NCBI GenBank assembly: GCA_048939995.1
Contig: JBHLOY010000004.1
Location: 219,483-283,482 of the forward strand
DNA: 64,000 bases
Direction: 5' to 3'
DNA from: Promethearchaeota archaeon
GTDB lineage: Archaea; Asgardarchaeota; Lokiarchaeia; Sigyniarchaeales; SOKP01
Made by a program: the position numbers and the translations under genes. Positions 60,789-64,000 of this stretch are shown piece by piece. The notes below the pieces were generated by a model. That model ran no database searches. It was not told the DNA's origin and worked only from the letters and a program-made list of their open reading frames with translations. Each line of letters opens with the position of its first letter. The stretch's first letter is position 1.

Positions 60789-61487
60789 TTATACTTCATC
60801 AGGTTCCGGTTTTACTTTTAATGATTCAATGATATTAATGATATCTTCAGCTAATTCATACCTTTGGGCCCTATACTTATCTCGGTTTAAATGTTTTTCA
60901 ATCTTCAATGGTGTTCCAACTTTTACACGTATTCCAGAAGAACTTATCATATTAAATAGTTTTGTTTTTTCAGTGTATATTGCTAATGGAATAATTGGTG
61001 CCATTCCTGCAACAGCAAACTTAATAATACCTGCCATAGCTTTAACTTGTGTTTCACGATCCAATTTAGATTCCGGCGTCATAGCCACAAGATCTCCTAC
61101 TTCATTCAGGTAATGAAACACTTTATCAATCGGTTCAGTATCTTCTTTATCATAGGTACTTCTGAACATGCCAAGTGCTTTCAACACTGGTCCATAAAGC
61201 TGATGCTTCATTAGTTTATGATGTACCATAAAATGAATTCGTCTTCCAGATACTTGACTGATTATTGCCATATCTCTTAAGGCATTATCACTAATTGTTG
61301 TTAAAATAGCCTTATTTCTTAATGGAATGTTTTCTCTTCCATCAATTTTTAAGTCCGCAAAAAGCGCTAAACCTGCCCAGCTAAGCCCTTTTACTGAAGC
61401 ATAAAGCACATCGTTCATTAATTCCTTACTAAAAAGCTTATCTTTTCCTTTTGTTTCTGCTTCCGGCTCTTGAGTTGTTTCTGCCAT
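60789..61487 (-). CDS. PlsC/lysophospholipid acyltransferase-fold protein lacking the catalytic His
   Basis: GRENIP, RIHFM, MTPE, APIIPLAI and VKVGTP motifs; NHxxxxD replaced by ISDNALRD. Confidence 0.7.
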   Translation of the reverse strand: MAETTQEPEAETKGKDKLFSKELMNDVLYASVKGLSWAGLALFADLKIDGRENIPLRNKAILTTISDNALRDMAIISQVSGRRIHFMVHHKLMKHQLYGPVLKALGMFRSTYDKEDTEPIDKVFHYLNEVGDLVAMTPESKLDRETQVKAMAGIIKFAVAGMAPIIPLAIYTEKTKLFNMISSSGIRVKVGTPLKIEKHLNRDKYRAQRYELAEDIINIIESLKVKPEPDEV

Positions 61488-61510
61488 TTTTATCCTCTTT
61501 TTTTTAATTT

Positions 61511-61705
61511 TTATAATTTATCTATAAAATCATTAACCTCCTCCATTCGTCTTTCATAATAATCCTTCAATTCCTTCTCAGATACGAATGTTGGAATTAC
61601 TTTCTCTAAAAAAATATCAAATATTGTTGATAATTTAGTCTTATGGTGAAGAGTCTCAAGAAACTCCTCGCCTAATTCTTTTAAATTTTTAATAAATTCT
61701 GTCAA
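61511..61705 (-). CDS. Small hypothetical protein within the operon
   Basis: GGAGGT RBS before TTG; tight spacing to both neighbours. Confidence 0.6.
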   Translation of the reverse strand: MTEFIKNLKELGEEFLETLHHKTKLSTIFDIFLEKVIPTFVSEKELKDYYERRMEEVNDFIDKL

Positions 61706-61723
61706 ATTACCTCCTACACCTCC

Positions 61724-62749
61724 CTAAGTTAGGTTATCCCATTTACCGCATCTAGATCCCCATCTAGCGATTACTTGATTGCCATATTCTGGCATTTTGA
61801 CCTGTACTATTTCGCATTGATTGGGACAATCCCCGCAATTAAAAGCAGAGGTTTTAAACTCGATTTCTGCCACTTCCAAACCTCTAAAACTTGTTTCATG
61901 TTCATGCTCCAAATAATAATCCCTAACAAGTATCGCCATGCCTAATGCGCCCATGAGAACATTGTATTTTGGTACAATAATTTTAACCTTTAAATGACGT
62001 TCGAAAGCCTCTATCATTCCTTTGTTGTAGGAAACTCCTCCTTGGAACACAATTGGCTCTTCTAATTCTTTCGCTTTAGCTAAATTATTCAAATAATTAC
62101 GAACCAAGGAATCACATAACCCTGCAATTATATCTTCTTTACTATATCCAGCATTTTGTTTATGAATCATATCAGATTCAGCGAAAACTGTACACCTGCC
62201 TGCAATACTCAAAGGGTTTTTTGATCGAATTGCATAATCTCCAAAATCTTCAATGGGTATTCCAAGCCTTGTTGCTTGGTGGTCTAAAAATGAACCCGTT
62301 CCAGCGGCACATATTGAATTCATCGCAAAATCTACAATAATTCCATCTCTAAGGATGATAATCTTTGAATCTTGACCGCCTATCTCAAGAATAGTTCGTA
62401 CATCGGGATACATGGATTGTGCTGCAACAGCATGAGCGATAATTTCTGTCTTTGCAAGATCTCCTCCCACCACTGCCTTTGTTAGATATCTTGCTGAACC
62501 GGTCGTACCACAACAACGTATTGCATAATTTTTTAATTCAGGCTTTTCTTCAATCTTATTCCGTAACTCAGACATACCCACTTTAGCAGAATCAATAGGG
62601 GAACCTTCATTACGTAAAAAAACACTTGTTAAAACCTTTCCATCAGTATCCATTAATACAAATTTACAACTAACACTTCCAATATCAATACCTAAAAAAC
62701 AATCCTTCTTCTCTTTTTCTATTCTTACATCATCAGAAACTTCAACCAT
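61724..62749 (-). CDS. ATP-dependent acyl-CoA dehydratase activase (HgdC/BadFG; PlsA activation-domain-like)
   Basis: GIDIGSVS.K, TTGS.R, EIGGQDSK, MNSICAAGTGSF, RCTVFAESD, FQGG; C-terminal CGDCPNQC...GSRC. Confidence 0.92.
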   Translation of the reverse strand: MVEVSDDVRIEKEKKDCFLGIDIGSVSCKFVLMDTDGKVLTSVFLRNEGSPIDSAKVGMSELRNKIEEKPELKNYAIRCCGTTGSARYLTKAVVGGDLAKTEIIAHAVAAQSMYPDVRTILEIGGQDSKIIILRDGIIVDFAMNSICAAGTGSFLDHQATRLGIPIEDFGDYAIRSKNPLSIAGRCTVFAESDMIHKQNAGYSKEDIIAGLCDSLVRNYLNNLAKAKELEEPIVFQGGVSYNKGMIEAFERHLKVKIIVPKYNVLMGALGMAILVRDYYLEHEHETSFRGLEVAEIEFKTSAFNCGDCPNQCEIVQVKMPEYGNQVIARWGSRCGKWDNLT

Positions 62750-62761
62750 AGCATCACTTTA

Positions 62762-63949
62762 TCATTGACTTTGAATAATTTGATAACATTCTTTATAAAA
62801 ACTACTTCCATAATCATGATAAACATTTTCTAAATCTCGCTTCAAATAATCTCTCTTCTGGCTGAGTTTATGCTCACGACGAGCATACATGAGGTCTACA
62901 AATGCCTCTAACCTTGTTTTAAAGCCTTCCATCCCAGATTGCTCATCGAATGAAAAGTAAATGATAGGTAAGTCGTATACACTTTTTAACTTATTTGTTA
63001 TAATCGTTCTAGCAGTTACTTCTGGCATACAAGTAAATGGGTACTGGTGAACAAAACCATCGAAACCTGCACGGGCTCTATCAATGTATTCTCCAAGAAC
63101 CCACACACACTCACCTCCTATATCCATTGGAAGATAAGGTTTTGCTAAATACTCTAGCCACTTTCTGTGATAATTTAGATGGAACTTATGTACAACCCAG
63201 TCCCATAAACTCAAATTTTGATGGATTTCCACTTGCATTTCACCTAATTTGCGTCTAATATCAAGATTTACATAAGGTTCAAGAGAGATGTGGATTTCTC
63301 CCGATATAGCGACCTTTAAGGGGTCTCGAGTTTTATCAACATCAATTTGATTAAAATCTTCTTTAATAACATGTTTAAAATTTCTTAAACCTTTCAATGT
63401 ATTAGTTTCATCAAGCTTGATTAATAATTCTTTTACAATATTGGTAGTGTCTCCTTGGTTGCGTTCATACGCTCGAAAAAGACCTTCTGCTGTTTGTATA
63501 TCATTCAATAATTTTGCTTTTTTCAAAAAAAATATAACGGCTTTAATAAATTTTGAGTAAATAAAGGGATCTCTTCTCCCTGTTACCTCCTGAAGAGTTT
63601 TAACCCAATGAAACTCCAGAAGATCAGCCTGGTCTAGAGGAATCATGATAAAATCCTTGTAACCCATATCCCTTAATATTCGTTCTTGCACGCTTGCATA
63701 GAAACCAAATCGACATGGTCCGCAGTCAATAGCCATAACTAATACGTCTGCACCTTTATCTAGAGCATTCTTGAAGTCTCCGATTGTTGCTTTAAAGGGA
63801 AAACACACAAATTCAGGGCTATGTTTTACTCCGATTTTGACAGCTTCACGGTTGGTAGGATCAGGGAGAATTACCTCTAAATCTAATGATTCAAATAAAG
63901 TTTTGAATGCAACCCAATTTGGTCCCATATTAGGGAAGGAAATTAACAT
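62762..63949 (-). CDS. 2-hydroxyacyl-CoA dehydratase/reductase-like Fe-S subunit (PlsR/DUF2229-related)
   Basis: FPNMG, SPEFVCFPFK, GPCRFG.Y, GEI, PFTCMPE and DEQSG..G.KTRLEAFVD motifs. Confidence 0.82.
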   Translation of the reverse strand: MLISFPNMGPNWVAFKTLFESLDLEVILPDPTNREAVKIGVKHSPEFVCFPFKATIGDFKNALDKGADVLVMAIDCGPCRFGFYASVQERILRDMGYKDFIMIPLDQADLLEFHWVKTLQEVTGRRDPFIYSKFIKAVIFFLKKAKLLNDIQTAEGLFRAYERNQGDTTNIVKELLIKLDETNTLKGLRNFKHVIKEDFNQIDVDKTRDPLKVAISGEIHISLEPYVNLDIRRKLGEMQVEIHQNLSLWDWVVHKFHLNYHRKWLEYLAKPYLPMDIGGECVWVLGEYIDRARAGFDGFVHQYPFTCMPEVTARTIITNKLKSVYDLPIIYFSFDEQSGMEGFKTRLEAFVDLMYARREHKLSQKRDYLKRDLENVYHDYGSSFYKECYQIIQSQ

Positions 63950-63970
63950 TTTAATTCTAAGAAATTTTAC

Positions 63971-64000
63971 CTAGTCAAGTATTTGATCAAAACTATGAAA
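63971..64000 (-). CDS. 3' end of an upstream gene of the same operon (partial)
   Basis: Open frame ...FHSFDQILD-TAG ending 21 nt before the next start. Confidence 0.45.
   Translation of the reverse strand, partial: FHSFDQILD

Follow-up and report, generated by a model that had tools for sequence, protein, structure and literature searches.

The locus and its operon

We analyzed a 64,000-nt stretch of DNA (the window) from a Promethearchaeota archaeon, positions 219483-283482 of contig C13 of its genome (G000), and focused on a gene cluster at the end of the window, which coincides with the end of the contig. The cluster encodes parts of a predicted ATP-driven iron-sulfur (Fe-S) enzyme of the BCR/HAD superfamily together with a protein of PlsC fold. 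Four complete, co-directional genes lie on the minus strand in the order D2, B, s64 and PlsCx, separated by gaps of 12, 18 and 23 nt, which reproduces the coordinates and tight spacing given in an earlier note made on this DNA. The elements, in window coordinates, are as follows:

62762..63949, minus strand: D2 (P0001), 395 aa, catalytic Fe-S subunit (BCR/HAD superfamily, DUF2229 branch); Pfam DUF2229 plus an HGD-D tail
61724..62749, minus strand: B (P0002), 341 aa, HgdC-type ATP-dependent activase with a C-terminal Cys4 tail; PF01869, TIGR00241
61739..61837, minus strand: Cys4 tail of B, residues 305-337, CGDCPNQC...RWGSRCGKW
61511..61705, minus strand: s64 (P0003), 64 aa, conserved small protein with a TTG start
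60789..61487, minus strand: PlsCx (P0004), 232 aa, PlsC fold without the catalytic His; PF01553
63950..64000, minus strand: non-coding spacer upstream of D2, ending at the contig end

The earlier note had placed a partial gene at the end of the window. We find a non-coding spacer there instead: its 51 nt are identical to the 3′ end of a 185-nt non-coding spacer that precedes the orthologue in a relative with 91% identity (locus L003), and they align to conserved AT-rich blocks in further genomes of the genus. The contig stops within this spacer, which is probably a promoter region.

The genes missing from the window were found in relatives. In three genomes of the same GTDB family, two from another genus (G147 and G040) and one from the genus of the window genome (G104), D2 is part of an uninterrupted operon encoding a HAD phosphatase, a tandem PlsC (~555 aa), D1, D2, B, s64 and PlsCx. 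This is the ancestral form of the operon, and the window holds the distal half (D2, B, s64 and PlsCx) of this seven-gene Lokiarchaeial set. The gene that precedes D2 in intact relatives, whose identity the earlier note had asked for, is D1. The D1 of the window genome (P0126) lies at the start of another contig, C17, along with the other members of the proximal half, the HAD phosphatase and the tandem PlsC (P0125). It is followed by a 69-aa chimeric relic open reading frame (ORF) and the first 110 residues of a FAD_binding_4-D1 fusion that runs off the contig. In close relatives (L003/L014 and L004/L017), a second module stands between D1 and D2, consisting of an 813-aa FAD_binding_4-DUF2229-HGD-D fusion, a 343-aa activase with the same Cys tail and a 441-aa paralogue of D2. 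Since nothing but the 110-residue start of this module is present in the window assembly, an assembly gap very probably separates the start of C17 from the end of C13.

The relic ORF (L009; G000:C17, 333-542, minus strand), between D1 and the FAD-D1 fusion gene, is a composite: residues 1-29 repeat the beginning of P0001 (79% identity), and the remainder matches a stretch of D1 (75%). Four further genomes (G121, G141, G071 and G077) have comparable copies of the P0001 start, 63 residues long. The relic looks like a scar left when the module was inserted, and such a copy of the P0001 start would probably explain why contigs so often break immediately upstream of D2.

The FAD module itself (L004, 3037-7825; L003, 1-4158; its beginning at G000:C17:2-340) is present in some genomes of the genus only. 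Its FAD domain is of the VAO/PCMH type. We considered and dropped an AGPS-like reading of this domain, as its best relatives in the PDB are cytokinin dehydrogenases (8e-20), EncM and DprE1, and AGPS was matched at just 4.7e-4. In the 441-aa D2 paralogue of the module, DHGPC replaces DCGPC. We know of no described counterpart of a flavin reductase fused to such an Fe-S subunit.

On the other side of the cluster, 121 nt downstream of PlsCx, the window encodes P0005 (59518-60666, minus strand), a C45-family autoproteolytic acyltransferase/hydrolase (NF040521, 153.6 bits). In G104, the PlsC-like gene has an orthologue of P0005 (75% identity) ~1.3 kb downstream; in L014, another gene stands in its place. 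Given this replacement and the 121-nt separation, we left P0005 out of the operon.

The predicted reductase and its relatives

The earlier note had recognized in D2 a dehydratase/reductase-like Fe-S subunit, an assignment that the domain, fold and residue evidence supports. P0001 matches DUF2229 (PF09989) with 41.8 bits against a Pfam cut-off of 29.4 and ends in an HGD-D tail. Three cysteines (C49, C79 and C307) are present without exception in a diverse set of 63 relatives, and their conservation is 99-100% in a set of 124. The AlphaFold model of P0001 has a mean confidence (pLDDT) of 92, and its top 20 matches in the PDB are all HadBC (3O3M), DCCP (7YYL/6ENO), BzdNO or MbdON, with a probability of 1.0. 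A phmmer search of P0001 against the PDB sequences gave no significant match, so the link to HadBC and DCCP comes from the fold search only. Its partner D1 (P0126) has a canonical DUF2229 domain (150.7 bits), an HGD-D tail and three invariant cysteines of its own (C63, C101 and C289). Because the D2 hidden Markov model (HMM) finds D1 at 5e-37, we regard the two as paralogues, like HgdA and HgdB.

Orthologues of P0001 (74-91% identity) fill more than 120 clusters from metagenome-assembled genomes (MAGs) labelled Promethearchaeota or Lokiarchaeota; the cluster members that we looked up were all MAGs. A search of sequencing runs listed DNA datasets from sediment, mangrove and soil metagenomes, and no RNA dataset.

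The activase B matches PF01869 (BcrAD_BadFG; 6.7e-49) and TIGR00241 (2e-60; 204 bits against a cut-off of 125), and its relatives in the PDB are HadI and HgdC (both at 1e-37), MbdQ and DCCP-R. From C305 onward it carries the additional cysteine tail that the earlier note had pointed out, with the motif C-x2-C-x-N-x-C...G-x-R-C-G-K-W (here G-S-R-C-G-K-W). The same Cys4 motif ends the activases of what we call the split type, in Asgard archaea, a Bacillota MAG and Monoglobus. It is also found at around residue 600, in the linker between the second activase domain (B2) and D1, in Pls-type proteins of Listeria monocytogenes (1475 aa), Collinsella and Fusobacterium, and in the B2-D1 linker of nine ~1400-aa proteins of the architecture B-B-D1-D2 and of BBD972, a protein encoded elsewhere in the window genome. 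The remark in the earlier note that the tail resembles the linker of multidomain enzymes was thus correct, because the motif recurs between B2 and D1 of Pls-type proteins.

The multidomain enzymes in question are PlsA/PlsR, encoded by CPE1194/1195 in Clostridium perfringens and by single genes in Listeria, Enterococcus and Lactococcus, and the glycerol ester reductase Ger, a single polypeptide of ~1400 aa (Tmari_0479 in Thermotoga maritima; SHJ90043 in D. alkenivorans). Both act on sn-1 esters, which they turn into vinyl or alkyl ethers (PMC9702350, PMC13159169). PlsA/PlsR is an oxygen-sensitive member of the BCR/HAD family (PMC12838417); Ger has the Pfam string BBDHDDH, and homologues of it have already been reported in Lokiarchaeota (PMC13159169).

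Homology to this type of enzyme holds domain by domain. In 16 B-B-D1-D2 proteins and the 1475-aa Listeria protein, the D1 HMM covers residues ~650-990 and the D2 HMM residues ~1000-1400, and the Ger string BBDHDDH fits B, B, D1 (D+H) and D2 (D+H), as seen in P0126 and P0001. The operon thus has both the building blocks and their order in common with PlsA/PlsR: first the HgdC-type activase, then the Cys4 linker motif, then D1 (with DUF2229 and an HGD-D tail), then D2. The differences are that the activase here is a single free protein rather than two fused domains, that D1 and D2 are separate proteins, and that the operon also includes genes of the PlsC type, one for a dead PlsC fold and one for s64. 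The fused double activase (BB) that marks PlsA and Ger is absent: P0002 has a single BcrAD_BadFG domain, and the operons we read hold one B per D1/D2 pair. It is secure that the operon encodes an ATP-driven Fe-S enzyme of the BCR/HAD type that belongs to the DUF2229 branch and has the components of PlsA/PlsR and Ger.

To place D2 among these enzymes, we used stand-ins as references: the 1475-aa Listeria protein, treated as a Pls orthologue on the basis of PMC9702350, a Fusobacterium BBD+404 pair, a 1479-aa Collinsella protein found by tblastn, and the ~1400-aa B-B-D1-D2 proteins. The last of these align over 95-98% of a D1-D2 fusion and come from MAGs labelled Deltaproteobacteria/Desulfobaccales, Planctomycetota, Spirochaetota and Actinomycetota, among others. 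In the D-domain trees, D1 and D2 were separated with full support. P0001 fell in an Asgard clade (100/100) within a split-type group (90/88) that also holds bacterial D2 singles and D1-D2 fusions, and the B-B-D1-D2 stand-ins for the single-polypeptide Ger belong to a clade that excludes it. A first quick tree had suggested a firm split-type D2 clade (95%), which we dropped: in an approximately unbiased (AU) test, a tree in which the Asgard D2s are the sister group of the PlsA-type clade was not rejected and even scored better. The exclusion of P0001 from the PlsA-type clade is therefore the sole firm placement that these alignments provide, and it is moderately supported that P0001 belongs to, or adjoins, a split-type subfamily that is common also in bacteria (1533 representatives at E<=1e-3).

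The proposal of a split PlsA/PlsR/Ger-like system accordingly stands in its domain order and Cys4 motif but not in its double activase or in a position of D2 inside the PlsA-type clade; as far as a phylogeny with stand-ins for the verified enzymes goes, D2 is outside that clade, with a sister position not rejected.

The window genome encodes a second system that does fall within the PlsA-type clade, on long branches. At 3603-7946 of contig C28 (L008, minus strand), BBD972, which has two activase domains and D1, is followed by a 471-aa protein without a Pfam match. This pair is a likelier counterpart of the published Lokiarchaeota Ger homologues (PMC13159169) than the D2 system is. Further HgdC-type activase paralogues (G000:C13:172071-173703, C13:191288-192091 and C3:138642-139400), two of them in tandem, are 26-40% identical to P0002 and to the 343-aa activase of the FAD module (B343), so the genome holds several more BCR/HAD-type systems.

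HgdAB-HgdC and HadBC-HadI (3O3M, 4EHT, 1HUX) resemble the operon proteins in subunit fold (TM score ~0.5-0.57), in a three-Cys cluster site and in having an ATP-dependent activase. One alternative is a fermentative CoA-thioester dehydratase or reductase of the HgdAB/HadBC kind, with the acyltransferases of the operon using its acyl-CoA product or being co-regulated with it. Such an enzyme would fit the best solved folds (HadBC and BzdNO/MbdON), the names that NCBI gives to relatives ('2-hydroxyacyl-CoA dehydratase', 'acyl-CoA dehydratase activase-related') and the neighbourhoods of bacterial split-type systems described below. Sequence identity to HgdAB and HadBC is 12-15%, however, and P0001 matches PF06050 (HGD-D) with 22 bits, below the cut-off of 28.4, and over residues 294-352 only (the last ~59) rather than at full length, whereas DUF2229 lies above its cut-off. 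Neither a CoA-transferase nor a 2-hydroxyacid dehydrogenase was found in the seven Asgard loci that we read. The activase ends in a Cys4 tail, a PlsA-type linker motif that, to our knowledge, HgdC and HadI lack. We consider a fermentative role quite unlikely.

Acyltransferase genes and their linkage to the reductase

All three PF01553 domains of the window genome lie inside this cluster, two in P0125 and one in PlsCx. Both domains of P0125 have canonical HX4D and (F/Y)PEGT motifs, and the protein matches an NCBIfam AGPAT domain with 161.5 bits (cut-off 102.95). A PlsY homologue (PF02660, 118.8 bits) is encoded far from the cluster, at G000:C11:48065-48595 within a 410-aa open frame.

PlsCx is of a different kind. 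P0004 matches PF01553 with 31.6 bits against a cut-off of 23, and its best fold match is PlsC of T. maritima (1-acyl-sn-glycerol-3-phosphate acyltransferase; 5KYM, 3.5e-7). In contrast to PlsC, the catalytic His is absent: the HX4D position reads D67-x4-D72, and across the 36 members of the PlsCx family the His position varies between D, K, P and S while D72 is invariant. Block III is degenerate as well, with TPESK in P0004 and TPE(S/A)(K/R) in the family; the Pro and Glu of (F/Y)PEGT are kept and its Gly and Thr are lost. The acyltransferase fold that the earlier note had assigned to this protein is hence confirmed, with the catalytic His lost. In the second of the families sampled below (f2), a separate PlsC-like gene (L018; G089:C6, 10428-11252) also lacks the catalytic His (NFQSVLD) and, going by this motif, may be a second, independent dead PlsC fold retained in the operon.

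The 64-aa protein s64 matched no Pfam or NCBIfam family. It is 58-98% identical in four orthologues, and its position is always between B and the PlsC-like gene. The identity range spans genera, so the small protein listed in the earlier note is encoded by a real gene.

We examined the linkage of these genes in 151 genomes of the phylum, with GTDB families labelled f1, f2, f5, f22 and f27. D2 orthologues are present in 22/25 genomes of f1 and 2/2 of f2, and more distant forms in 10/13 genomes of f5 and in the sole sampled f27 genome. PlsCx is found in 23/25 f1 genomes and in one f22 genome, there as a 93-residue fragment at a contig start. Wherever an f1 genome has both the tandem PlsC and D1 (24 genomes: the window genome and 23 sampled relatives), the two are adjacent. 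In both f2 genomes, D1 is adjoined by a single-domain PlsC homologue; the acyltransferases of f2 are encoded by two separate genes, of which one is canonical and the other lacks the His. In ~17 of 22 genomes, PlsCx and D2 share a contig, at a distance of 1.3-7 kb. The linkage of PlsC, D1 and D2 therefore extends over two GTDB families and seven genera, despite rearrangements, fusion or splitting of the acyltransferase genes, and insertions. In one such case (G113), both the FAD module and a PlsA-clade BBD+469 pair, orthologous to BBD972+471, stand between D1 and D2, so that three reductase modules share the acyltransferase locus. The association with a PlsC-like gene from which the earlier note had argued is thus conserved, and with a canonical tandem PlsC and a HAD phosphatase in the same operon, the acyltransferase linkage is stronger than is visible from the window alone.

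This conservation bears on a further alternative, that the enzyme is a small-molecule reductase driven by ATP, like DCCP, and its linkage to PlsC a lineage-specific accident in Lokiarchaeia. DCCP and DCCP-R (6ENO, 7YYL) have the fold and the activase relationship in common with the operon proteins and rank with the best matches in both structure and sequence; the split-type subfamily, with the 1533 representatives given above, is widely distributed and had no common neighbourhood in the bacteria that we examined. DCCP itself forms a homodimer with a six-Cys site for an [8Fe-9S] double-cubane cluster, whereas the operon encodes two paralogous subunits with three conserved cysteines each. An accidental association is also hard to reconcile with a linkage kept across the families and genera named above through so many rearrangements, and we judge this alternative very unlikely.

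A candidate route to non-isoprenoid lipids

We propose that D1 and D2 would form a heterodimer like HgdA/HgdB, to which B, as a homodimer, would deliver a low-potential electron at the expense of ATP. The Cys4 tail of B, equivalent to the B2-D1 linker, may serve in docking or as an electron relay. Its most likely substrate is a glycerol-phosphate lipid with an acyl ester, as produced by the two upstream canonical PlsC domains; by analogy with PlsA/PlsR and Ger, reduction of the ester carbonyl via a ketyl-type radical would give an alk-1-enyl or alkyl ether. PlsCx and s64 would serve to bind or present the lipid, or as a membrane anchor for the complex, with no part in acyl transfer.

The steps of this proposal differ in strength. 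Because the PlsC linkage is conserved in the operon, we infer an acyl-ester substrate, and a lipid ester is likely on the strength of the operon structure. Ether formation by D1, D2 and B is plausible by analogy, the relatives used for that analogy lying in a different clade. The dead PlsC fold and s64 are best read as lipid-binding or docking subunits. Taken in combination, the BCR/HAD machine, a PlsC-made acyl ester as substrate and an alkenyl or alkyl ether as product form a reading, argued partly from analogy, whose chances we hold to be about even.

The placement of D2 outside the PlsA-type clade also means that the reaction need not be conserved. The enzyme may act on the acyl lipids made by PlsC through other chemistry, for example by altering the chain (dehydrating a hydroxyacyl group or reducing a double bond) or by reductively releasing a fatty aldehyde or alcohol, without forming an ether. 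The PlsC linkage fits this equally well, and the PDB titles of the superfamily cover dehydrations, ring reductions and small-molecule reductions. Yet ester-to-ether conversion is the reaction of the nearest enzymes of known function that have the linker motif and D1 followed by D2 (PMC13159169, PMC9702350), and the conserved operon holds no hydroxylase or other chain-modifying gene. We regard other chemistry on the same lipids as unlikely.

Several observations weigh against ether formation from a PlsC-made ester. In the D1-rooted tree, the clade formed by the D2 domains of Listeria, Fusobacterium, Collinsella and the B-B-D1-D2 proteins is fully supported (100/100) and excludes P0001, and in the trees, stand-ins take the place of the experimentally verified PlsA, PlsR and Ger (CPE1194/1195, Tmari_0479 and the D. 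alkenivorans Ger). The split-type subfamily contains no functionally characterized protein. The bacterial split-type loci that we read, in Nitrospirota, Bacillota, Monoglobus and one further contig (n=4), had no lipid genes nearby. As judged from its active-site residues, PlsCx cannot be a conventional acyltransferase. One relative (G083) has the HAD phosphatase, the tandem PlsC and PlsCx but no D1, D2, B or s64, whose place is taken by a single 204-aa ORF of no recognized family (L026; G083:C6, 5142-9421); hence PlsCx is associated no less with the PlsC module than with the reductase. Finally, lipid analysis of a cultured Lokiarchaeon found archaeal lipids only, although esters may have been missed (PMC13400652).

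Beyond the reaction itself, we offer a wider proposal more tentatively, as a possibility that we would not yet favour: that Lokiarchaeia make non-isoprenoid ether lipids through a self-contained operon comprising the tandem PlsC, a split reductase that is sister to PlsA/Ger, and a lipid presenter made up of the dead PlsC and the 64-aa protein. The extra modules, the FAD-fused D1 with its own B and D2 and the PlsA-clade BBD+469 pair, would have been recruited in some genera, perhaps for a second ester or for saturation of the vinyl ether.

Eukaryotic membranes are of the bacterial type, though eukaryotes are thought to descend from Asgard-like archaea. Homologues of PlsC and PlsY and of Ger have been listed separately in publications on Asgard genomes (PMC6737245, PMC13159169, PMC13400652). 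Our literature search found no paper on the operonic coupling of PlsC to a reductase, on the split-type subfamily or on a PlsC fold without the catalytic His. The operon bears on the question of whether any Asgard archaeon makes fatty-acyl lipids. It is short and defined, with seven genes and natural variants that have one, two or three reductase modules and one variant that has none, and it offers a first functional handle on the large split-type DUF2229 subfamily. It thereby constitutes a defined but unproven candidate route to non-isoprenoid lipids in close relatives of eukaryotes.

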